From positions 1 to 17,968 of the forward strand of contig DATFXR010000157.1 in the NCBI GenBank assembly GCA_035315685.1: DNA of 17,968 nucleotides, in the 5' to 3' direction. This DNA is from Vicinamibacterales bacterium. Its GTDB lineage: Bacteria > Acidobacteriota > Vicinamibacteria > Vicinamibacterales > CAVVIG01. This document shows, piece by piece, positions 1 through 12,794 of this stretch (its first letter is position 1; the number at the start of each line of letters is the position of its first letter). The translations under genes and the position numbers were made by a program. Below the pieces are notes generated by a model, which saw only the letters and a program-made list of their open reading frames with translations, was not told the origin of the DNA and did not search any database.

Positions 1-1552
1 CTCGACCTCGCTGCATGTCGATCAGGACTTCACGGCCGATCGCGAGGCGCTCGGCGCGGCGGTCGACGCGTACGGCGGCGCGAGCGGCCAGGGCTTCGAG
101 GCGGGCCTGACGCCAGACGACGACACGCCCGATACCGGCAACGCGTTCGTCGCCGACGAGACCGAATTCAACATCTTCAACACCGATCGCCGGCTCGACG
201 CCCTCCAGACGCTGGCCGACCAGCTTGCCGGGATCGAGCAGAAGAAATCGGTGATCTACTTCAGCAGCGGCATGAGCCAGCAGGGCACCGACAACCAGGT
301 GCAGCTGCGGCGGACCGTCGATCGAGCAAAACGCGCCAACGTCTCACTCTATGCAGCCGACATGCGGGGACTGCAGGCGTTGGTGCCTGGCGGCGACGCG
401 ACCGCGGCCAGCCTGCGCGGCACCGCTGCCTTCTCGGGCGCGTCGACGCGCAACCAGTCGGACCGCCGCGCCGGCTCGCAGGACACGCTGACGACGATGG
501 CGGAGGACACCGGCGGCCGGGCGTTCTTCGACTCCAACGGCTTCGGCGCGGTGTTCGATCGGGTGGTGAACGACACGTCGGCGTACTACGTGCTCGGTTA
601 CTCGAGCACGAACAGCGCGCGCGACGGCCGCTTCCGCCGCATCAAAGTGAAGCTGAAGCGGACCGATCTCAAGGTCGAGTATCGATCAGGGTACTACGCG
701 GCGCGCGACTTCGCGCACTCGACGAAAGAAGACCGTGAACAGCAGCTGCAGGATCAGCTGCTGTCGGACCTGTCGGCGACCGATCTGAGCGCCTACGTGT
801 CGAGTGCGTACTTCCGTGTCGCCGACAACCGCTACTTCGTGCCGCTGTCGCTCATTGTCCCCGGTAACCAGATCCCGATTACCAGGGCGACCGACAGGAA
901 CAAGGCGACGCTCGACGTGCTCGGGATTGTCCGCGACATGCACCAGCGGCCGGTGGGGCGCGTCCGCGACACGCTCAGGCTCTCGCCCGACGGTGCCGAC
1001 GATCTGCAGAGAAAGACCGTCCAGTACGAGAGCGGATTCGAGATGCCGTCCGGCAAGTACCACGTGAAGATGGTCGTGCGCGAGAACGAGGACGGCGCGT
1101 TCGGGTCGTACGAAACCGACTTCGTCGTTCCCGACGTCAAGCGTGACGCGATCAAGCTCAGCTCGGTCATCGTCGGCACGCAGCTTCAGGCTGTGTCGCG
1201 CAAGAACGAACCGAACCCGCTGATCAAAGACGGCCGTGAGCTGGTGCCGAACGTGACGCGGGTGGTCTCCTCGAATCAGCATCTGTATTTCTATTACGAG
1301 GTCTACGAGCCGTCGCAGCCGGTGAAGCTGTTGACGAGCATCGCGTTCTTCCGCGGCCGTCAGCGGGCGTTCGAGACGCCACTCGTGGAGCAGACGGAGC
1401 TCGCCGGGACGAATCGTAAGGCCGCGGTCTTTCAATTCGACGTGCCGGCGGCGTCTCTCCGCCCCGGCCTCTACACCTGTCAGATCAATGTCGTCGACGA
1501 TTCCGCCGGCACCTTCGCGTTTCCGAGGCTGCAGCTGTACATCCGGCGCTGA
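1..1552 (+). CDS. VWA domain-containing protein (VWFA-related Acidobacterial-type C-terminal region); 5' end lies outside the window
   Basis: Frame 2 is open from base 2 of the window to TGA 1550-1552; the listed ORF 251..1552 is only the part after the first in-window Met. The translation (...ADQLAGIEQKKSVIYFSSGMSQQGTDNQVQLRRTVDRAKRANVSLYAADMRG...) resembles the distal part of a von Willebrand A fold followed by a long C-terminal extension, as in the Acidobacteria-specific VWFA-related family. The family assignment is from recalled motifs, not from a search. Confidence 0.6.
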   Translation, partial: STSLHVDQDFTADREALGAAVDAYGGASGQGFEAGLTPDDDTPDTGNAFVADETEFNIFNTDRRLDALQTLADQLAGIEQKKSVIYFSSGMSQQGTDNQVQLRRTVDRAKRANVSLYAADMRGLQALVPGGDATAASLRGTAAFSGASTRNQSDRRAGSQDTLTTMAEDTGGRAFFDSNGFGAVFDRVVNDTSAYYVLGYSSTNSARDGRFRRIKVKLKRTDLKVEYRSGYYAARDFAHSTKEDREQQLQDQLLSDLSATDLSAYVSSAYFRVADNRYFVPLSLIVPGNQIPITRATDRNKATLDVLGIVRDMHQRPVGRVRDTLRLSPDGADDLQRKTVQYESGFEMPSGKYHVKMVVRENEDGAFGSYETDFVVPDVKRDAIKLSSVIVGTQLQAVSRKNEPNPLIKDGRELVPNVTRVVSSNQHLYFYYEVYEPSQPVKLLTSIAFFRGRQRAFETPLVEQTELAGTNRKAAVFQFDVPAASLRPGLYTCQINVVDDSAGTFAFPRLQLYIRR

Positions 1553-3494: not shown

Positions 3495-4289
3495 GTGCCC
3501 GACGTGAACTCGCACCCGCCCGGAACGTTTTCGTGGCCTGAGCTGGCGACGACCGATCAGAAAGCCGGCGTTGCGTACTACCGCGGGCTGTTCGGCTGGG
3601 ATGTCAAAGAGGAGCCGATGGGTCCGACCGAGGTCTACTCGATGTTCCAGATGCGCGGCCGCCCGGTCGCCGCGGCGTACACGATGCGGCCGGAAGAGAA
3701 ACAGGCCGGCGCCCCGCCTCACTGGAACTCGTACGTCACCGTCAACAACGTCGACGAAGTCGTGACCAAGGCGCAGGCGATCGGCGCGCGCGTGTTCGCG
3801 CCGCCGTTCGACGTGATGGACGCCGGACGGATGGCCGTCCTGCAGGATCCCACCGGCGCGGTGTTTCAAGTGTGGCAGGCGAAGAACCACGTCGGGGCGA
3901 TGATCCTCAACGAGCCCGGTGCGCTCTGCTGGACCGAATTGACGACCAGCGATCTGCGGGCGGCGGAAGGGTTCTACACGCAGCTGTTCCACTGGACCGC
4001 GAAGCGCAGCGATCCCGCGTCGGGCATGGAGTACACCGAGATGAGCAACAACGGGCAGCCGGGCGTCGGCATGATGCCCAAGCCGCCGAACATGCCGGCG
4101 CACATCCCGTCGTTCTGGATGCCGTACTTCATGGTCGCCAACGTCGACGCGAGCACCGACAAGGCGAAGCAGCTGGGCGGGAAGGCGATGGTTGGACCGC
4201 AGGACATCTCGAACGTCGGCCGCTTCTCGGTCGTCAGCGACCCGCAGGGCGCCGTCTTCGCGCTGTTCCAGCCCGCTCCGCGGCAGTAG
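3495..4289 (+). CDS. VOC-family protein with two tandem glyoxalase/bleomycin-resistance-like domains
   Basis: GTG 3495 is preceded by AAGGAGG (3483-3489). The 264-aa product has two repeated halves ([10 protein letters not shown]...GLFGW...PMGP..YSMF / [10 protein letters not shown]...QLFHW....G.EYTEM) characteristic of duplicated VOC/glyoxalase-fold modules. Confidence 0.75.
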
Positions 4290-4311
4290 CAGACCGCTGC
4301 CACATCATGTC

Positions 4312-4365
4312 GTAGTGTCCGGCTTCACCCGGACCTCAGCGAGGTCCGCGGAAGGCGGACACTAC
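4312..4365 (+). terminator. GC-rich stem-loop 23 nt after the VOC gene stop; outer 10-bp stem GTAGTGTCCG/CGGACACTAC enclosing inner hairpins GTCCGG-CTTCAC-CCGGAC and GGACC-TCAGCGA-GGTCC
   Basis: A perfect 10-bp inverted repeat at 4312-4321 / 4356-4365 with nested hairpins. There is no U-tract. The first 23 nt (GTAGTGTCCGGCTTCACCCGGAC) recur at 12871-12893. It could be a terminator or a conserved structured RNA upstream of msrA (start 4408). Confidence 0.35.
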
Positions 4366-4407
4366 GCGCGTGTGATTTCCTGTTTAATAAGAGGCGGGGT
4401 ACGCACG

Positions 4408-5058
4408 ATGTTCACGAAGAAACGGCTGACGATCCCGTCAGCCGCCGAGGCACTACCCGGACGCGCCGAGCGGATGACGGTTCCGGACGCGCATTTCGTC
4501 AACCACCATCGTCTGGCGCCGCCGTTTCCCGATGGTCTGCAGCGGGCGCTGTTCGGTATGGGCTGCTTCTGGGGCGCTGAGCGGAAGTTCTGGCAGCTTC
4601 GCGGTGTCTACAGCACCGCGGTGGGGTACGCGGGGGGCCACACGCCCAACGCGACCTATCGCGAGGTCTGCACGGGTATGACCGGGCACAACGAAGTCGT
4701 GCTCGTGGTCTTCGATCCGAAGGTTGTCAGCTACGAGCAGCTGCTGAAGACGTTCTGGGAGAATCACGACCCGACGCAGGGCATGCGGCAGGGCAACGAC
4801 ATCGGCACGCAGTATCGATCCGGCATCTACTATTTCGACGGGGCGCAGCAGCGTGCCGCGGAGCAGTCGCGCGACGCGTTCCAGAAGCAGTTGACAGCCG
4901 CCGGCTATGGAACGATCACGACCGAGATCCTGCCGGCACCAGAGTTCTATTACGCCGAGGATTACCACCAGCAGTACCTCGCCAAGGATCCCGACGGCTA
5001 CTGCGGACTCGGCGGTACAGGCGTCAGCTGTCCAATCGGCGTGGGTGTGACTGCCTGA
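4408..5058 (+). CDS. msrA: peptide-methionine (S)-S-oxide reductase MsrA
   Basis: ATG 4408 follows GAGGCGGGG. The translation has the GCFWG active-site motif and near-colinear similarity to E. coli MsrA along its length (SAAEALPGR...[45 protein letters not shown]...[30 protein letters not shown]...[19 protein letters not shown]). The listed ORF 4192..5058 is an unsupported upstream extension. Confidence 0.93.
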
Positions 5059-5082
5059 TCGGCGGTGCCGCCGCTGCGCGCT

Positions 5083-5197
5083 GCAATTAAGAATTAAAGA
5101 AGTAAGAATTAAGAATTCCTGATCAGGCTGTCGCACTGCCTGGCAGCGGAACAGCGTGACGCGCATTCTTAATTCTTAATTTGTAATTCTTAATTGC
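5083..5197. repeat. AT-rich palindromic 7-bp-unit element, family 1 copy 2 (GCAATTAAGAATT...AATTCTTAATTGC termini)
   Basis: Left arm 5083-5121: GC AATTAAG AATTAAA GAAGTAA GAATTAA GAATTCCTG. Right arm 5161-5197: GCGC ATTCTTA ATTCTTA ATTTGTA ATTCTTA ATTGC. The arms are reverse-complementary apart from a 1-nt indel and a few mismatches, around a 39-nt GC-rich spacer containing CTGCC-T-GGCAG. The terminal 13 nt match copy 1. It lies 25 nt after the msrA stop and ends 3 nt before the hrpB ATG. Confidence 0.85.
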
Positions 5198-5200
5198 CCG

Positions 5201-7570
5201 ATGCCGGTCCAAGCACTTCCAATCGACGGGTACATCGAACCAATCATCGCAGCAGTCCGCCGCTCGCGTGCGGTCGTAGTCACCGCCGCGCCGGGGGCTG
5301 GAAAAACCACGCGCGTTCCGCCGGCGCTGCTCGTTGACGGTCCGGTGATCCTCCTGCAGCCGCGGCGCGTCGCGGCGCGCGCGATCGCGGCGCGGGTTGC
5401 CGCTGAACGCGGCTGGACTCTCGGCCGCGAGGTCGGTTGGCAGGTGCGCTTCGAGCGCCGCTTCTCGGCCGAGACCGCGCTGCTCGTCGTCACCGAGGGG
5501 GTACTCACAGCGCGGCTGCAACACGATCCGCTGCTGTCGAAGTTCCGCACGGTCGTGCTCGACGAGTTTCACGAGCGAAGCGTGCACGCCGACGTGGCCC
5601 TTGCCCTCGCCCGTCAGGCCTGGCGCGCCCGTTCGACCGCTGCCGCTTCGTCCTCGGCGACGTCGACCGACGAGGACCTGCGCATCGTCGTCATGTCGGC
5701 GACGCTCGACGCGGATGCGGTGGCGTCGTTCCTCGGCGACTGCCCGATCGTCGCCGTGCCGGGCCGCACCTATCCTCTCGACGTCACCTACACGCCCGGT
5801 GTGCCGATCGGTGAAGCCGCCTCGAGTGCGCTGGCGGCGACGGGCGGGCAGGTGCTCTGCTTTCTCCCGGGCGCCGGGGAGATTCGCCGCGCGGCCGCCG
5901 ACATCGAGCCGCGCGTCGGAGCGGACGTCGAAGTAGTGCCGCTCCATGGATCGCTGGACGCCGACGCACAGGGCCTGGCGCTCCGTCCGTCATCTCGCCG
6001 CCGGATCGTCGTCGCCACGAACATCGCGGAAACGTCGCTGACGGTTCCGGGCGTCACCGCCGTCGTCGATACTGGTCTGCAGAAGATTGCGCGGTACGAC
6101 GCCGACCGCGGCATCGACAGTCTCGAGACCGAGCGTGTCACTGCAGATGCTGCCGATCAGCGCGCCGGCCGTGCCGGCCGCCTCGCACCCGGCATCGTGC
6201 GGCGGCTCTGGGATCGGCGCGATCGATTGCGGCCGCATCGCGAGCCGGACATCCGGCGAATCGATCTGGCCGGCACGGTGCTCGATGTGATTGCCTGGGG
6301 CGGCGATCCACGGACGCTCGACTGGTTCGAAGCGCCGCCGGCCGATGCGATCGCCGCTGCGCTGACGCTGCTCGGGCGGCTCGGTGTGATCGACGGACGC
6401 GGCCGGCTGACCGCGTTGGGCGAGCAGGTGCGGCGGATCCCGCTGCATCCACGACTCGCGTGCATGCTCGCCGCCGCCGGCGGCGGACCTCAGATGGCGC
6501 GGGCCTGTGCGCTTCTCTCCGAACGCCATCTGTTGCCGCCGCGCAGCGCATCTACCACATCCGATCTCCTGTCGGCGCTGGATCACTGGTCCGGGATGCC
6601 GCCGCATGTCCACCACGCGGCGGCGAGTATCCAGTCCGCGTTTCGGTCAGCCATCAGCCCTCAGCCCTCAGCCATTGACCGCGGCGAGGCGGTATTCCGC
6701 CGGGCCGTCCTGTCCGGATATCCCGACCGGGTCGCACAGCGACGCGCGCCGGGATCGCCGGAAGTGCTGCTCGCCTCCGGCACGGGCGCCACAATCGCCC
6801 GCGACAGCGGCGTCCATGACGGCGAGTTTCTCGTCGCGGTCGACGTCGCGCGACGGGCGGCGCCCGCCACGGCTCTGGTCCGCATCGCGAGCCGCGTCGA
6901 GCGCGAATGGCTCGCGCCGACCGCATCAGAGACCGTGCACCGTTTCGACGGATCGAGCGGCCGCGTGAGGGCGTTCGCCATCGAGCGCTATCTGGCGCTG
7001 GTTCTCGGCGAGCAGCCCGTCGCCGCCGACGTCGACGTTGCCGCACGGATGCTCGCTGACGCCTGGCTGGCGCGCGGACCTCGCGGCGCCGATGCGCAGT
7101 TGCTGCGCCGCCTGCGCTTCGCCGGACACGAGGCGGACGTTGCAGAATTGATCCGCACTGCCGCGTACGGTGCGCGATCGCTCGATGCGGTCACGCCTGG
7201 CGCTGCGCTCACGCCAGCCGTCCTGCGCGATCTCGACCGCGACGCGCCGGAGATGCTCGCGGTGCCCAGCGGCCGCAGCGCACGCCTCGAGTACAACGAG
7301 GATGGGACGGTGTCGGCGTCGGTGAAGCTCCAGGAACTGTTCGGTCTCGCCGACTCACCGCGAATCGGGCGCCGCCGCGAGCCTGTTGTCCTCGCACTGC
7401 TCGCGCCGAACGGCCGTCCCGTCCAGATCACGCGCGACCTGCGCAGCTTCTGGAACAACACGTATCCGGAAGTACGAAAGGAGCTGCGCGGCCGCTACCC
7501 GAAGCACCCGTGGCCCGAGGATCCGTGGAGCGCACAGCCGACGCATCGGACTGTGCGCCGGAAGCATTGA
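5201..7570 (+). CDS. hrpB: ATP-dependent RNA helicase HrpB (DEAH-box family)
   Basis: 789 aa. Walker A APGAGKTT, DEFHERS (DEAH-box variant), SATLD, FLPGAGEI, TNIAETSLTV.GV..VVD.G and QRAGRAGR are all present, followed by an HrpB-type C-terminal domain (...RYPKHPWPEDPW). The N-terminus is colinear with E. coli HrpB. Confidence 0.92.
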   Translation: MPVQALPIDGYIEPIIAAVRRSRAVVVTAAPGAGKTTRVPPALLVDGPVILLQPRRVAARAIAARVAAERGWTLGREVGWQVRFERRFSAETALLVVTEGVLTARLQHDPLLSKFRTVVLDEFHERSVHADVALALARQAWRARSTAAASSSATSTDEDLRIVVMSATLDADAVASFLGDCPIVAVPGRTYPLDVTYTPGVPIGEAASSALAATGGQVLCFLPGAGEIRRAAADIEPRVGADVEVVPLHGSLDADAQGLALRPSSRRRIVVATNIAETSLTVPGVTAVVDTGLQKIARYDADRGIDSLETERVTADAADQRAGRAGRLAPGIVRRLWDRRDRLRPHREPDIRRIDLAGTVLDVIAWGGDPRTLDWFEAPPADAIAAALTLLGRLGVIDGRGRLTALGEQVRRIPLHPRLACMLAAAGGGPQMARACALLSERHLLPPRSASTTSDLLSALDHWSGMPPHVHHAAASIQSAFRSAISPQPSAIDRGEAVFRRAVLSGYPDRVAQRRAPGSPEVLLASGTGATIARDSGVHDGEFLVAVDVARRAAPATALVRIASRVEREWLAPTASETVHRFDGSSGRVRAFAIERYLALVLGEQPVAADVDVAARMLADAWLARGPRGADAQLLRRLRFAGHEADVAELIRTAAYGARSLDAVTPGAALTPAVLRDLDRDAPEMLAVPSGRSARLEYNEDGTVSASVKLQELFGLADSPRIGRRREPVVLALLAPNGRPVQITRDLRSFWNNTYPEVRKELRGRYPKHPWPEDPWSAQPTHRTVRRKH
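6648..6675 (+). repeat. intragenic run of four tandem heptamers CAGCCAT CAGCCCT CAGCCCT CAGCCAT inside hrpB (encodes SAISPQPSAI)
   Basis: Direct 7-bp tandem repeats read in the sequence. The unit is the reverse complement of the ATGGCTG unit used by the intergenic elements at 11904-11940 and 16280-16380. It lies in the variable linker between the helicase core and the HrpB C-terminal domain, and the frame is preserved. Confidence 0.7.
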
Positions 7571-7574
7571 CTGG

Positions 7575-7602
7575 GCGTAGCACGAAGGCTTCAGCCGAGC
7601 GA
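7575..7602 (+). repeat. 28-nt intergenic motif GCGTAGCACGAAGGCTTCAGCCGAGCGA (copy 2 of 2)
   Basis: It sits in the 43-nt gap between convergent hrpB (stop 7570) and the membrane protein (stop 7614). Within that gap it is followed by hairpin GAGCG-ACGGC-CGCTC (7598-7612). GCGTAGC (7575-7581) is complementary to GCTACG at 7626-7631, inside the 3' end of the minus-strand CDS. Confidence 0.6.
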
Positions 7603-7613
7603 CGGCCGCTCGC

Positions 7614-8366
7614 CTAAAGGCGTCGCGCTACGTCAGGAGCATCGAGCGCTCCAAGCAGCGGCTGACCGGCGCGGGCAGCGTAGAAACCGAACGCGGCCGA
7701 GGCCAGGACGAGCGCGATCGAGAGATTGCCGGGCAGGGCCGCCCAGCTCGCGGCATGCGGCAGGATCGGTGCGACCGTCACGATGTTGTCCACGATGAGC
7801 ATCACCGCCGTCACCAGCAGGCCGAACCTGAAGATCGCCAGGGTGATGATGCCGATCGCCGTGAGCTGGCCGACCACGTAGAGCGACAACTCCTGACCGA
7901 ACGGGATGTTGCTCGTCACCGCAGCGGTGACGACGGTCATCCCGACCGCGACCGCGATCCACGTCCGCCTCACGATCAGGCGCAGGCCGACGAAGGTCAT
8001 CGTGATGAGCAGCGCGGTCTGAACGCTGCTGTAGAACTGGCCGGCCCAGGCCAGGATGAGCGAACCTGCGCCGCTCAGCACGCGCACGTCGCCATCCAGA
8101 AACGGCAGCGCGGGCGCGCGTCCGATCTGGTACGGCATCGCACCGCGGAACCCGTCGTTGACGATCAGCGCGGCTCCGAGCGCGACGCCGATCAGGATCT
8201 CGCGGCCGATTCGCGGGTCGCGGACGTGTCCGGCAAACAGCCGCGTCCATCCGAGCAGGCCGTCGGGCCAGAACCGCCGGCCATATGGCTCGAGCGCGAC
8301 GTAGAGCACCCACAACAGCGCGACTTGAAACAGCATGTTGCCGCAGACGCGGAAGAAGCTGTTCAC
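7614..8366 (-). CDS. polytopic membrane protein, stand-alone paralog of the C-terminal transmembrane domain of the upstream Ser/Thr kinase
   Basis: 250 aa from GTG 8366 (ATG alternative at 8336), hydrophobic throughout. It aligns clearly to kinase residues ~640-882: LYVALEPYGRRFWPDGLLGWTRLFAGHVRDPRIGREILIGVALG vs IYAALEPYGRRFWPEMLLGWSRLLSGRIRDPRVGRDVLLGVTFG, and C-termini FGFYAARAGQPLLG vs FGFYASRAGEPLFG. The frame upstream of 8366 hits a stop at 8424 and shows no kinase homology, so this is a separate gene, not a frameshifted continuation. Confidence 0.75.
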   Translation of the reverse strand: MNSFFRVCGNMLFQVALLWVLYVALEPYGRRFWPDGLLGWTRLFAGHVRDPRIGREILIGVALGAALIVNDGFRGAMPYQIGRAPALPFLDGDVRVLSGAGSLILAWAGQFYSSVQTALLITMTFVGLRLIVRRTWIAVAVGMTVVTAAVTSNIPFGQELSLYVVGQLTAIGIITLAIFRFGLLVTAVMLIVDNIVTVAPILPHAASWAALPGNLSIALVLASAAFGFYAARAGQPLLGALDAPDVARRL

Positions 8367-8475
8367 CTCGGCCGCCGGGCGCGGGCGTGACGGCCGGCGG
8401 CCCGACCGTGACGTCGAATTCGGTCACGACATCTACCTCGGCCCCCTGACGCTCGGCTACAGCCTTCGCGCTCCG

Positions 8476-11091
8476 TTATGGCGGCGCGAATTTGCCGAAC
8501 AGCGGCTCGCCGGCGCGTGAGGCGTAGAAGCCGAACATGGCCAGCAGGACGATGGCGGCAATGGTCCAGTTCGACGCCGTCGCCGACCAGTGAGACACCT
8601 GCAGCGTGAACGGGACCGCCTGGCACAGACCGACCACGATCCTCGCAACCGCCGCTGCCAGCAATCCGAACCGTATCAGCACGAACGTGAATGCCGCGGC
8701 GATGATCAGCTCATAGGTCACCTCAACGGGCAGCGCTGCAGTGAAGGTCAATGTCGACCACCAATAAATGATGATCACCATCGCGATCGGGACTGCCAGC
8801 GACGCACGGCGCGTGAGCAGACGGAGCACGACCAGCAGCAGCACGCTACCCAGCGCGACCTGCAGCTCGCGCAGGATGATGGTCGCCCAGTCGGAGATCG
8901 TCTCTGCCGCGCCGAAGAGAGTGGTCGCGTCACTGCCCATCCGCGGCACCGTGCCCGGGTACCCGAGCGCCTGCGGCAGCAGCCGGCGCGCGATCTCCAG
9001 GCCAAACCAGACGACGCCGAACGTCACGCCGAGCAGCACGTCGCGGCCGACGCGCGGGTCGCGGATGCGCCCGGACAACAGTCGGCTCCAGCCCAGCAGC
9101 ATCTCCGGCCAGAATCGACGGCCGTACGGCTCGAGCGCCGCGTAGATCGTCCACAGAATCACGCCGAGCGCCACGGCATCGCTGAGGACCGCGCTCAGCG
9201 ACAATGCCTCCAGCCGCAAGTCGGGCAGGTGATGGTTGCCGGTCACCCACGACACCAGCTCCGTGCAGACGGCGAAGATGGCGACGCGCATCGCGCCGCG
9301 CCGGTCGGCACGGCCGTGCCGCACGTTGTAGCGTGCCAGCACGACGGCGCCGCCGAGCAGCGCGACGAGTACGGTCAGGAACACCGCATACCCGATCCGG
9401 TCTTCGAGTGCCCGCTGCACGGCCTGCATCCGCGTCGGCACGGTCCACGGACCGATCAGCAGGAACGACACGGCGCGGCCGCGATACGCCGCGGCCTCGA
9501 CCCGCACCCGCAAGTCGGCGCGGCCCGGCAGCGCGCCTTCCCACGCCCCGCGCGCGTCGGCGTAGTCGCGCGGCGTCCACTGGGTCTCGACCGCCGTGAA
9601 GTCGCGCATCGGCAGATCCGCGAGCTCGAACAGTTGCGGCCACGGCGGCGGTATCGCCGCCGCGGCTCCGCCGTCTTCGAACTGGCGAGGCACCGACGTG
9701 AACCCGATCAGCCGCCCGTGCATGTCAATCGTCACGGTATGCATGTCGGTGTCCGCCTGCGGCGGATCGAGCGGCGTCACGTGCAGCGCAAGCTGTCGCG
9801 GCGCGAGCGTGTGTGGGCTGGTGCGATACCAGAAGATGAATCCCGGCGGCCGATCGCGCCCGAGCACGTCCCAGCGGTTCGGGCTCAGATCCGTTCTCGC
9901 GATCCACACGATGTACGGCGCATACGGCCCGAGGCCGTGCGCCGTATCGCCGCGCGGCTCGTTGTAGCCGAGCGCGCTGAGGATCTGCTCGGCCCGATCG
10001 TCGAGGACCGCGGGCGGCTTGTCGAGCGGCAGCAGCCGCGACAGCGTCGTCCGCGTCGCGAATCCGGCGCAGAGCAGCATCGCGATCGTCACGAAGAGGA
10101 GCGCCGACAATCCCTTCGTGACTGGCCACGCATCGGTCTCGCCGGCCGCGGCCACCATGTCGGGCGACGGCGTTTCGCCGGCGGCCAGCGCCGCGGCGAG
10201 TGGATCGCCACCGGGCAGCGCGGCCGCGACCGTCAGTACCGACGCCGGCCGCTCGTCCGGATCGCGCGCGAGGCAGCGGAGGATGACGCGCTCCACCGCC
10301 GGATCGAGATCGCGCACGATCGCCGACGGCGTCGTGATGGTGCCGGTGTCATGCAGCTGTCTCAATTCGCCGAGGGTCTTCGCGTCGTAGGTCCGGCGGC
10401 CGGTGACGATCTCGAACAGAATCAACCCGAGCGCGTAGAGGTCGCTCTTGATCGACGCCGGTTTGCCGGCGAGCAGCTCCGGCGCCATGTACTGCGGCGT
10501 GCCTGCAACGTCGACGCCGATGTCGTTCGCCGCCGTCGCGATGCCGAAATCGGTGATGCGGACGTTGCCGTCGCCGTCGATCATCACGTTCGCCGGTTTG
10601 AGATCGCGATGGATGACGCCGCGTTCGTGCGCCGCGGCGATCCCGGCGCAGAGTTGCCGCGCGACGTCGATCGCCTTGTCCTGGGGGAAGCGGCCGATGC
10701 GGCGGAGCAGCGACGCGAGATCTTCGCCGTCCACGTATTCCATCGTCAGGAACCGCCGCCCGTCGGCGTCGCCGAGGTCGTAGAGACGGCAGACGTTCTT
10801 GTGCGACACTTGGCGCGCGATGCGCAGCTCGTTGTGGAACTGCGCGAGCCGCACGGGATCAGCGGCGACACCTTCGGGGAGGAACTTGAGCGCGACCGGC
10901 TGGTCGAGGGTGAGGTCGTCGGCGCGGTAGACCTCGCCCATGCCGCCGCGGCCGAGGAGCGCGACAAGGCGATAGCGCGCGGCGATAATCGATCCCGGGG
11001 CGAACCGGCTCGTTTTTGGCGGCGGTGCCTGCGGCGCCGTCCGCACCATTGACGGCTCGAGCGTGAGATCGTCCTCAGGGGACCGCGGCAT
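8476..11091 (-). CDS. Hanks-type serine/threonine protein kinase fused to a periplasmic segment and a large C-terminal multi-TM domain
   Basis: The kinase subdomains are readable: LGRGGMGEVY (Gly loop), ALK, HRDLKPANV (catalytic loop), DFG, APE. A TM helix (LSALLFVTIAMLLCAGFA) follows, then a ~230-aa non-hydrophobic segment, then ~7 predicted TM helices. The start is uncertain, with no obvious SD at GTG 11124 (longest), ATG 11091 or ATG 11049. The stop at 8476 is firm. Confidence 0.88.
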   Translation of the reverse strand: MPRSPEDDLTLEPSMVRTAPQAPPPKTSRFAPGSIIAARYRLVALLGRGGMGEVYRADDLTLDQPVALKFLPEGVAADPVRLAQFHNELRIARQVSHKNVCRLYDLGDADGRRFLTMEYVDGEDLASLLRRIGRFPQDKAIDVARQLCAGIAAAHERGVIHRDLKPANVMIDGDGNVRITDFGIATAANDIGVDVAGTPQYMAPELLAGKPASIKSDLYALGLILFEIVTGRRTYDAKTLGELRQLHDTGTITTPSAIVRDLDPAVERVILRCLARDPDERPASVLTVAAALPGGDPLAAALAAGETPSPDMVAAAGETDAWPVTKGLSALLFVTIAMLLCAGFATRTTLSRLLPLDKPPAVLDDRAEQILSALGYNEPRGDTAHGLGPYAPYIVWIARTDLSPNRWDVLGRDRPPGFIFWYRTSPHTLAPRQLALHVTPLDPPQADTDMHTVTIDMHGRLIGFTSVPRQFEDGGAAAAIPPPWPQLFELADLPMRDFTAVETQWTPRDYADARGAWEGALPGRADLRVRVEAAAYRGRAVSFLLIGPWTVPTRMQAVQRALEDRIGYAVFLTVLVALLGGAVVLARYNVRHGRADRRGAMRVAIFAVCTELVSWVTGNHHLPDLRLEALSLSAVLSDAVALGVILWTIYAALEPYGRRFWPEMLLGWSRLLSGRIRDPRVGRDVLLGVTFGVVWFGLEIARRLLPQALGYPGTVPRMGSDATTLFGAAETISDWATIILRELQVALGSVLLLVVLRLLTRRASLAVPIAMVIIIYWWSTLTFTAALPVEVTYELIIAAAFTFVLIRFGLLAAAVARIVVGLCQAVPFTLQVSHWSATASNWTIAAIVLLAMFGFYASRAGEPLFGKFAPP

Positions 11092-11117
11092 GCGACGAAT
11101 TCTACTGGAGGAGAGAA

Positions 11118-11762
11118 ATGACACGGACAGTCATGGCAACATGCGGCGCGGCGCTGTTGCTGAGTGCAGCGCTCATCGCGCAGGGCGGCCGACCGGCGAG
11201 TCCCGCCGGGTCGTCAGCCACGCAGGTCGGCGGCAAGTACGACACCAGCGGCGCCGAACCTGTCTACAGGGGCGGCAAATGGATTGAAATCACCTACGGC
11301 CGTCCGATCAAGCGCGGCCGCGACATCTTCGGTGGCACTGGCGACAACTACGGCAAGACGGCCAATCCTGACGCACCGGTCTGGCGAGCGGGCGCGAACG
11401 TGTCGACCCAGCTCAAGACCGAAGTGCCGCTGGTGATCAACGGCAAGACGGTCGCGCCCGGTACCTACACGATGTTCATCGATCTCAAGCCGAGCAACTG
11501 GACGCTGATCATCTCCAACTGGAAGGCGGCCACGACGTTCAATCAGAACAACGACGCCAGCAAGACCGGCGAAGTCTTCGGCGCCTACGGCTATTCGCCG
11601 GAAAAGGACGTGGTCCGCGCCGTGATGAAGACGTCGACGCTGCCGTTCTCGGTCGATCAGCTCACGTGGAACTTCACGGACATGAGCGATGCCGGCGGCA
11701 ACATCACGATCATGTGGGACAAGATGACCGCCTCCGTACCGTTCCGCGTCGGCGGCTCGTAG
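11118..11762 (+). CDS. DUF2911-like secreted protein
   Basis: ATG 11118 is preceded by GGAGGAG (11105-11111). The N-terminal signal-like segment is MTRTVMATCGAALLLSAALIAQG. Motifs WRAGANVST, GKTVAPGTYTMF, WTLIISNW and GAYGYSPEKDVVRA match my recollection of the DUF2911 family. Confidence 0.7.
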   Translation: MTRTVMATCGAALLLSAALIAQGGRPASPAGSSATQVGGKYDTSGAEPVYRGGKWIEITYGRPIKRGRDIFGGTGDNYGKTANPDAPVWRAGANVSTQLKTEVPLVINGKTVAPGTYTMFIDLKPSNWTLIISNWKAATTFNQNNDASKTGEVFGAYGYSPEKDVVRAVMKTSTLPFSVDQLTWNFTDMSDAGGNITIMWDKMTASVPFRVGGS

Positions 11763-11815: not shown

Positions 11816-11902
11816 ATGGTTCGAGACTTCACGCACATTCTGCGGCTGTTACGGCGCGCGCCAGGGTTCAGCGCCGTGGCCGTCATCGTTCTCGCGCTCG
11901 GT
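11816..11902 (+). pseudogene. remnant encoding only the N-terminal 29 aa of an ADOP-type (Acidobacterial duplicated orphan permease; FtsX/MacB-like) ABC permease
   Basis: The translation MVRDFTHILRLLRRAPGFSAVAVIVLALG matches the highly stereotyped ADOP N-terminus (..DLRYALRxLRKxPGFTAVAVLTLALGIGANTA..). Homology stops exactly where the heptamer repeat GATGGCT GATGGCT... begins at 11903. The frame then continues as repeat-derived junk to 12079. Confidence 0.55.
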
Positions 11903-11903
11903 C

Positions 11904-11940
11904 GATGGCTGATGGCTGATGGCATATGGTTAATGGTCAT
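11904..11940. repeat. tandem heptamer array GATGGCT GATGGCT GATGGCA TATGGTT AATGGTC, separating the ADOP remnant from the CRTAC1 fragment
   Basis: It shares an identical 19-mer ATGGCTGATGGCTGATGGC with the left arm of the element at 16280-16380. It contains the TAA (11931-11933) that closes the upstream side of the CRTAC1 reading frame. A degenerate ATGG-rich stretch (GATGGGACTGATGGGCCCATAGGGTGGCTGGGGC, 11767-11800) lies upstream of the ADOP remnant. Confidence 0.75.
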
Positions 11941-12071
11941 TCGTCGCCAACCAGAACGGCGACACCAACGGTCTGTTCCGGAACGACGGTGGCCATTTCG
12001 TCGACGTCGCGGGCGAGTGGGGTGTCGAGGCGCCGAGGCACTCGGCCGAGTTCGGCGGCGTCGGCCCCGCG

Positions 12072-12794
12072 GTGGCTGACTTCGATGGTGACGGCCTCCT
12101 CGATCTGTTCGTCGCCAACTATGGGCCGAGCGCGATGTACCGGAACGACCACGGCCGCCGGTTCGTCGACGTGACCCGTGACGTCGGCCTCTTCTTCGAG
12201 CAGCACGCGACCACGCCGTCATGGGGCGACTACGACAACGACGGCCGGCCGGACCTCTACGTGGCCGGCTTTCTGGTCAACGTCACGCACTATCCCGATC
12301 ATCTGTTCCACAACCTGCGCGCGGCGGGAGGTGGCGCCCGGTTCGAGGACGTGCTGCCGAAGCTCGTCGATCAGCACGACGGCAGTCACGGTGTGCAGTG
12401 GGTGGATTTCGACGGGGATGGCGCGCTCGACCTGGCGCTGACCAACAACGATCCGGCCGGCGGCCACTATCTGTTCAGGAATCTGCTTCCGGCGGCGCGC
12501 GCACGCCAGTCCCTCGCTGTCGACGTCGTCGACGGCCACGGCCACCACACGAAGGCGGGTGCCGAAGTACGTGTCTACGCGGCCGGCACACGCCGGCAGA
12601 TCTCGTCCGGTCTCGTTGACACCGGCGGCGGCTACTGCTCGCAGAACGTGATGCCGGTCCACGTCGCGACGGCCGATGCCGCGCGCGTGGACGTCGAGGT
12701 GACGTCGATGAGCGGGAGGGGACGTCGGACAACGCGCGTCGCCGGCGTCACCGTCGGCCAGGCGTCGCGCCCGCTCGTCGTGAAGGTGCCGTGA
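12072..12794 (+). CDS. CRTAC1-family (FG-GAP/VCBS repeats + ASPIC/UnbV domain) protein, C-terminal fragment; probably a 5'-truncated remnant
   Basis: From GTG 12072 it encodes DFDGDGLLDLFVANYG...RFVDVT, DYDNDGRPDLYVAG, VDFDGDGALDLALTNN (FG-GAP/VCBS units), then the UnbV/ASPIC-like C-terminus (VRVYAAG....SGLVDTGGGYCSQN). The same frame is open back to 11934 and still encodes a repeat unit (FVANQNGDTNGLFRNDGGHFVDVAGEWGV) with no start codon. There is no signal peptide. Full-length family members are typically much longer than this 240-aa fragment. Confidence 0.6.
   Translation: MADFDGDGLLDLFVANYGPSAMYRNDHGRRFVDVTRDVGLFFEQHATTPSWGDYDNDGRPDLYVAGFLVNVTHYPDHLFHNLRAAGGGARFEDVLPKLVDQHDGSHGVQWVDFDGDGALDLALTNNDPAGGHYLFRNLLPAARARQSLAVDVVDGHGHHTKAGAEVRVYAAGTRRQISSGLVDTGGGYCSQNVMPVHVATADAARVDVEVTSMSGRGRRTTRVAGVTVGQASRPLVVKVP

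Follow-up and report, generated by a model that had tools for sequence, protein, structure and literature searches.

The window analyzed here, a 17,968-bp contig from a metagenome-assembled genome (MAG) of the Vicinamibacterales (Acidobacteriota), carries two minus-strand open reading frames (ORFs) that share a membrane region: a receptor-type Hanks Ser/Thr kinase, called K here, and, 110 nt downstream on the same strand, a small ORF of 250 aa, called Delta-F. The third-position G+C content of both is 0.87, as high as in genuine genes of the window (overall G+C 62–71%). Kinase K is intact and belongs, as an ordinary representative, to a large and unnamed family of receptor-type membrane Hanks Ser/Thr kinases from soil bacteria. 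Delta-F is probably (we put this at about 0.8) what a frame-shifting internal deletion of ~1.8 kb left of a second, originally full-length kinase gene, F. The features that bear on this reading, all on the minus strand, are listed below; TM stands for transmembrane helix, loci and contigs used for comparison carry L numbers, and database proteins carry P numbers.

8476..11124: kinase K, full length (ORF, Pkinase match, and orthologs)
8373..8430: leader remnant of the lost F-type kinase, VVTEFDVTVGPPAVTPAPG (blastn, peptide match, and translation)
8375..8387: deletion junction; the leader homology and the 3′-part homology to L082 overlap here, and L002 homology stops at 8378
7633..8427: out-of-frame ORF, 264 aa, Arg/Pro-rich, into which the native F start would now read
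7614..8366: Delta-F, corresponding to the C-terminal ~29% (TM4–TM10) of an F-clade kinase; coding homology from 8378

Delta-F belongs to a clade of full-length kinases

An earlier note on this DNA had described the small ORF as a free-standing copy of the membrane module of K, with about 50% identity over conserved blocks. The homology is real: BLASTP aligned K aa 656–882 with Delta-F aa 17–244 at 39% overall identity and 54% positives, with one gap (E = 7e-46), which is lower than the identity claimed. The similarity is not compositional, because it is block-wise and the shared blocks (W..Y.ALEPYGRRFWP..LLGW.RL..G..RDPR.GR..L.G, RFGLL, and FGFYA.RAG.PL.G) are invariant across the family. Delta-F is not a copy of the whole module, as it covers only the last seven of the nine module helices, that is, TM4–TM10 of the whole protein.

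Relatives were collected by a genome scan using one genome per species (66 loci, with each ORF sorted by domain), to which 24 metagenome loci were added. In a neighbor-joining tree, the module sequences form two old clades, F and K, that are ~37% identical to each other. The K protein of the window lies in clade K (76% identity to L007). Delta-F lies in clade F, with 80.5% identity to L002 and 65–69% to L018, L022, and copy 1 of L009, against 36.7% to the neighboring K. The best database relatives of Delta-F (P0002, P0003, P0006, P0014, and P0017; 60–84% identity) are all longer and extend N-terminally via two more TM helices and the ectodomain. L002 and L076–L082 (81–83% identity) also cover TM3, TM2, the ectodomain, and the kinase domain, and all close F relatives with enough contig (L078, L080, L082, L083, L085, L086, and L091) are full-length proteins of 869–978 aa with the order kinase domain, ectodomain, and 9-TM module. 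Metagenome contig L082 holds the intact tandem, with K (78% nucleotide identity) followed by a full-length F (82% nucleotide identity to Delta-F). Across the loci, the slot between a DUF2911 gene and hrpB, in which these kinases lie, is filled as follows:

K only: L007, L010, and L011
F only: L014, L022, L078, L080, L083, and L085
K and F, both full length: L009, L001, and L082

The architecture is fixed, in that nearly all of the 66 species-level loci have one ORF of 860–1000 aa comprising kinase domain, ectodomain, and 9-TM module. Split genes in this set are confined to frameshift-ridden long-read assemblies or individual decay events. Two sets of apparent exceptions were set aside. The stand-alone modules P0080, P0093, and P0007, which lie on long contigs, are really full-length genes that are frameshifted in error-prone assemblies, and a shorter architecture suggested by ~425-aa proteins with a common ectodomain start (P0002, P0014, P0074, and others) reflects contig-end or frameshift fragments.

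A leader remnant upstream of Delta-F

Directly upstream of Delta-F, window positions 8429–8375 align by blastn with L082 2145–2196, the first codons of the F gene. The remnant comprises ~19 codons in the frame of ORF 7633..8427 and matches the F N-termini of L082 (RLVTDLDVTVGPAATPAPGTARFAPG), L080 (VVTDFDVTVGATPLPAAAGPARFAPG), and L078 (PLVTDFDVTVGATPTPAAGPARFAPG); the match stops just before “ARFAPG”, exactly at the beginning of the kinase domain. The frame of the remnant is 1 nt off from that of the 250-aa ORF (8427 − 8366 = 61 nt). On the other side of the junction, the in-frame codons just 5′ of GTG 8366 read PAAEVNSFF, which corresponds to SSPAAEVNSFF of P0002, after which homology ends and stops follow. 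Nucleotide colinearity with L002 (77% identity) likewise runs from hrpB through Delta-F and ends at 8378. What is missing relative to L082 is F codons ~31–626 (~1.8 kb), encoding the kinase domain, TM1, the ectodomain, TM2, and TM3. The joined ends share a few bases of GC-rich similarity.

These observations point to an ancestral genome in which K was followed by a full-length F in the DUF2911–hrpB slot. An internal deletion of ~1.8 kb would then have removed codons ~31–626 and joined the leader, out of frame, to the last seven TM helices. Because the deletion shifted the frame, the native F start now feeds a 264-codon nonsense frame. Delta-F would thus be a leftover tail and most likely a recent pseudogene.

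The earlier note took the tandem to be a domain duplication, fission, or fusion in progress. Tandem position, shared strand, and shared motifs are what one would expect if Delta-F were a recent duplicate of K's own C-terminal module. Identity to K, however, is only 37–39%, compared with 80–83% to F-clade kinases in other genomes, and the remnant upstream is an F-type kinase N-terminus rather than K sequence. Phylogeny and leader remnant together refute this origin, and we regard it as hardly tenable.

The junction in independent assemblies

A truncated gene could also arise from a mis-join in the MAG contig, in which case the real genome would carry a full-length second kinase. The family does share near-identical nucleotide blocks that confuse assemblers, an example being contig L073 at the EPYGRRFWP block. 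The junction at 8375–8387, however, lies outside the conserved blocks, and the few bases of similarity at the join are far shorter than an assembler k-mer. L073, a JGI contig taken from another assembly, matches window 10093–8230 with 100% identity; this span includes the K stop, the spacer, the junction (base for base), and the first 45 codons of Delta-F. The junction is also implied by a 1039-bp Logan contig (SRR5262253), which encodes the exact 250-aa protein with 158 nt upstream. An assembly artefact is therefore very improbable.

Beyond the identical span, L073 departs from the window. It is 100% identical for 1863 nt and then ~75% identical (L073 1864–2087, window 8229–8007), with the switch falling exactly at the EPYGRRFWPDGLLGW coding block. 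L073 is a chimera that arose in assembly at the conserved EPYGRRFWP block, and in this way the motifs shared by the many copies of the kinase family give rise to chimeric metagenome contigs. L073 had been considered as a second strain for measuring selection after the deletion and was dropped, since past 8230 it is a chimera and not a strain variant.

Is the tail still in use?

Delta-F resembles ordinary deletion pseudogenes in tandem paralog arrays (birth-and-death evolution) in having full-length orthologs, an out-of-frame leader, and sister deletions. It differs from them in that its remaining 250 codons are still pristine, so that either the event is young or the tail has been retained. 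Put otherwise, two marks of a deletion pseudogene, longer relatives and an out-of-frame 5′ remnant, were found, and relaxed selection or disabling mutations were not.

The alternative is that Delta-F is a functional, free-standing 7-TM protein, started at GTG 8366 or ATG 8336, that inserts into the membrane and associates with K's membrane module, acting as a modulator or decoy without a kinase domain. Several observations favor it and weigh against simple decay. The ORF is intact, with high third-position G+C, contains no stops, and keeps every family-invariant residue. The dN/dS ratio is 0.156 between Delta-F and L002, 0.171 for hrpB of the same pair, and 0.247 for K against L007; neither the branch length of Delta-F nor its distance to outgroups exceeds the value for L002. 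No terminator-like site was found between K and Delta-F, which lie on the same strand, so the tail could be co-transcribed with K. Topologically, a protein of seven TM helices could exist with its N-terminus outside. At least three other independent loci (L003/L004, L075, and L096) keep the last seven TM helices as a separate or near-separate ORF, and this repeated retention of TM4–TM10 could hint at selection rather than chance. Finally, kinase-controlling membrane proteins of the Abi fold do exist, for example SpdC with WalK (PMC5854430).

Other observations speak against a working protein. The ORF appears to originate from a frame-shifting deletion that sends the native start into another frame. 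Upstream of GTG 8366, the Delta-F frame contains in-frame stops and no start codon. Neither a usable Shine–Dalgarno spacing nor, in a sequence scan, a promoter-like site was found for Delta-F. The earlier note's notion of a free-standing partner gene finds no counterpart among relatives, as no conserved stand-alone ortholog occurs in the ~90 loci (66 species-level and 24 metagenome), and differently deleted copies of the family exist. The low dN/dS would be just as expected after a recent deletion, since Delta-F and L002 would then have accumulated almost all of their differences before it. Nothing observed here speaks for the heteromerization of tail and kinase that the earlier note had proposed. 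We therefore consider a functional tail unlikely: the deletion is probably recent or, less likely, the tail is still in use. Less likely again is a broader version, in which the last seven helices form an autonomous unit that has been freed repeatedly (in the window, L003/L004, L075, and L096) and is here translated and pairs with the K module as a kinase-less regulator.

Other decayed copies

Decay by deletion is not confined to the window. Five further family members show lesions of their own:

L016 copy 2, 6746–7852: in the same slot beside hrpB; kinase domain joined to the last helix
L099, 1584–2303: half a kinase domain joined to the last helix
L096, 2274–3296: kinase N-lobe joined to TM4–TM10
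L075, 1668–3941: in-frame stop after AWEG, then TM4–TM10
L003 (same as L004), 4528–6708: scrambled TM3 containing a stop

These five decayed independently, and the family appears to turn over by internal deletion.

Architecture and conservation of kinase K

K is 882 aa long if started at GTG 11124 and 871 aa if started at ATG 11091. Its orthologs are 867–886 aa long with the same layout, and the true start is likely ATG 11091, giving 871 aa as in the orthologs. The closest genome locus is L007, with 85% nucleotide identity and 76–95% amino acid identity in the individual domains. The domains of K, all on the minus strand and numbered from the GTG start, are as follows:

10243..10974: kinase catalytic domain, aa 51–294 (Pfam Pkinase PF00069, 184.6 bits; cutoff 31.7)
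10057..10122: TM1, aa 335–356, running from inside to outside (AlphaFold2 helix with pLDDT >90; positive-inside count)
9409..10056: ectodomain (“PERI”), aa 357–572, modeled as two helix-plus-4-strand units that are PepSY-like by fold only
8479..9408: C-terminal 9-TM module, aa 573–882, TM2–TM10 (AlphaFold2; conservation map)

The catalytic set is complete (K80, HRD with D174, N179, DFG at 192–194, and APE at 214–216), and these positions are invariant in a family alignment of 87 sequences. An AlphaFold2 model of K aa 331–882, built with 98 homologs, has a pLDDT of 93.6 and a pTM of 0.91 and shows TM1, the two-unit ectodomain, and nine TM helices, the latter spanning aa 573–870. The model of full-length K has low confidence in the kinase N-lobe and a pTM of 0.67. 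Charge counts place the kinase domain and the C-terminus inside and the ectodomain outside. The order of parts given in the earlier note (Hanks domain, one TM helix, extracytoplasmic segment, and multi-TM module) holds, with nine module helices in the model in place of the seven proposed; the extracytoplasmic segment, put at ~230 aa, is there as a folded α/β domain of ~215 aa (357–572) in the AlphaFold2 model.

The hallmark of the module is a cytoplasmic loop, ALEPYGRRFWPxxLLGWSRLLSGxxRDPRVGRD, together with the RFGLL and FGFYAxRAGxPLFG motifs. Of the 55 module positions that are invariant or nearly so, approximately 45 map to the cytoplasmic face, where the conserved stretches are the end of TM4 through an amphipathic helix to the start of TM5, the end of TM6, RFGLL, and the C-terminal RAGQPLFG. 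K probably acts as a sensor kinase. A signal at or in the membrane would be received by the PepSY-like ectodomain or within the 9-TM bundle, and the conserved cytoplasmic face of the module would relay it to the juxtamembrane segment and the kinase domain.

Relationship to known systems

A profile search with the module in a representative library matched 6461 clusters at 50% identity, 4676 of them at E ≤ 1e-10, and the module is C-terminal in all of the 150 proteins listed. Full-length family members have 850–960 aa and Pfam matches in the kinase domain only. The genome matches are mostly from Vicinamibacterales, with others from Planctomycetota, Thermoanaerobaculia, Bryobacteraceae, and Lysobacterales. 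Outside the kinase domain the family is unnamed, as the earlier note had suspected for the module: searches with K aa 331–882 gave no Pfam, NCBIfam, or PDB sequence or profile match, a Foldseek search against the PDB gave no match (best E 0.3, TM-score ≤ 0.2), and literature searches found no description of a kinase family with a conserved 9-TM module after the ectodomain.

K resembles the receptor-type Hanks kinases PknB/Stk1 (PASTA) and PknD in having an N-terminal cytoplasmic Pkinase domain, one TM helix, and an extracytoplasmic sensor. It differs from them in having no PASTA, β-propeller, or other named sensor, and in that the chain re-enters the membrane as a 9-TM module. No PASTA Pfam match was found in K, and its score against the PASTA kinase model NF033483 (PknB_PASTA_kin) is 266.5 bits, below the cutoff of 450, with the match limited to aa 44–302. 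The ectodomain has a modeled fold that resembles PepSY domains (the C-terminal domain of YpeB, 5boi; FoxB, 7abw) with modest Z scores, and PepSY (PF03413) gave no match in K even at E ≤ 1.

The modeled 9-TM module weakly resembles proteins of the CPBP/Abi fold (SpdC/LyrA, 6u0o; Rce1, 4cad), a resemblance that we treat as a lead only. CPBP proteins carry the motifs EExxxR, FxxxH, and HxxxN/D. These are absent from the module, which has only an ExxxR spacing (E665 and R669) and no conserved His at the positions of motifs 2 and 3; its conserved His residues, H632 and H845, lie on the outer face, outside FxxxH or HxxxN contexts. CPBP/Abi (PF02517) gave no match at E ≤ 10 for 12 family members, nor was there a PDB profile match at E ≤ 10. 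The module may nonetheless be a distant, catalytically dead scaffold of the CPBP/Abi type that is permanently fused to a Hanks kinase. In this it would differ from proteins such as SpdC, which are separate from the kinase. The Abi-domain protein SpdC controls the histidine kinase WalK (PMC5854430), which by analogy offers a functional parallel to the K module and is not evidence of membership.

Gene neighborhood and repeats

The kinase slot is bounded by two plus-strand genes:

5201..7570, plus strand: HrpB-type DEAH helicase (hrpB; Pfam), the convergent neighbor
11118..11762, plus strand: DUF2911 protein (Pfam and synteny), the conserved divergent neighbor on the other side

The convergent position of hrpB is conserved (synteny in more than 15 loci). 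Over window 3495–11762, the gene order is DUF2911 (divergent), one or two kinases, hrpB (convergent), msrA-type PMSR, and glyoxalase, and the same order from DUF2911 to glyoxalase recurs across the Vicinamibacterales (L001, L007, L009–L014, L016, and L078–L086). At 11091–11124, the start of K (ATG 11091 or GTG 11124, minus strand) and that of the DUF2911 gene (11118, plus strand) overlap or are separated by no more than 26 nt, so the divergent promoters must sit within each other's coding regions.

Two repeats flank the small ORF:

7576..7633, no strand assigned: palindrome of ~58 nt with two ~26-nt arms and a 5-nt loop, located where Delta-F and hrpB converge with their 3′ ends; it overlaps the final codons and the stop of Delta-F
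8450..8475, no strand assigned: 26-nt arm directly after the K stop, 85% complementary to 7576–7601 and a direct repeat of 7607–7633

In L007 and L082, too, the K stop is followed by related arms. The palindrome may act as a terminator in both directions or represent a REP-like element; a simple terminator scan passed over it because it has no T-run. An inversion or insertion, as suggested by the 26-nt inverted repeat, was ruled out by the unbroken colinearity with L002 from hrpB into Delta-F.

A second deletion scar lies ~3.5 kb from the first, at 11816–12794 (plus strand). Positions 11816–11902 (plus strand) code for no more than the initial ~30 residues of a MacB/FtsX-type permease, with 72% identity to aa 2–30 of an 828-aa gene in the syntenic L001. 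FG-GAP/ASPIC repeats follow directly, from ~11940, and ORF 12072..12794 (240 aa) is a C-terminal fragment of a gene that exceeds 500 aa in L001. As in Delta-F, ~20–30 leading codons are retained before the loss. Elsewhere in the window, a 433-aa ORF (251–1552, plus strand) matches with its aa 1–150 positions 183–323 of the acidobacterial VWA-domain model TIGR03436, of which only the C-terminal part is present; a Pfam search with it gave no match, and its other ~280 aa match no model. Rfam and tRNA scans of the window found none.

Implications

If the small ORF is the product of gene decay, the tandem “free module” should not be read as a new two-gene sensor system. Should the tail prove to be functional after all, it would represent a bacterial counterpart of truncated decoy receptors. 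The deleted copies suggest that multi-copy sensor kinases turn over by internal deletion, leaving debris that annotation pipelines label “hypothetical proteins”. The kinase family itself, with thousands of clusters, ranks with the most common types of membrane kinase in soil Acidobacteriota and is also found in Planctomycetota, and 60% of the protein, comprising ectodomain and 9-TM module, has neither a family name nor a solved relative. The confident structure model and the map of conserved cytoplasmic residues open this kinase family to experiment.

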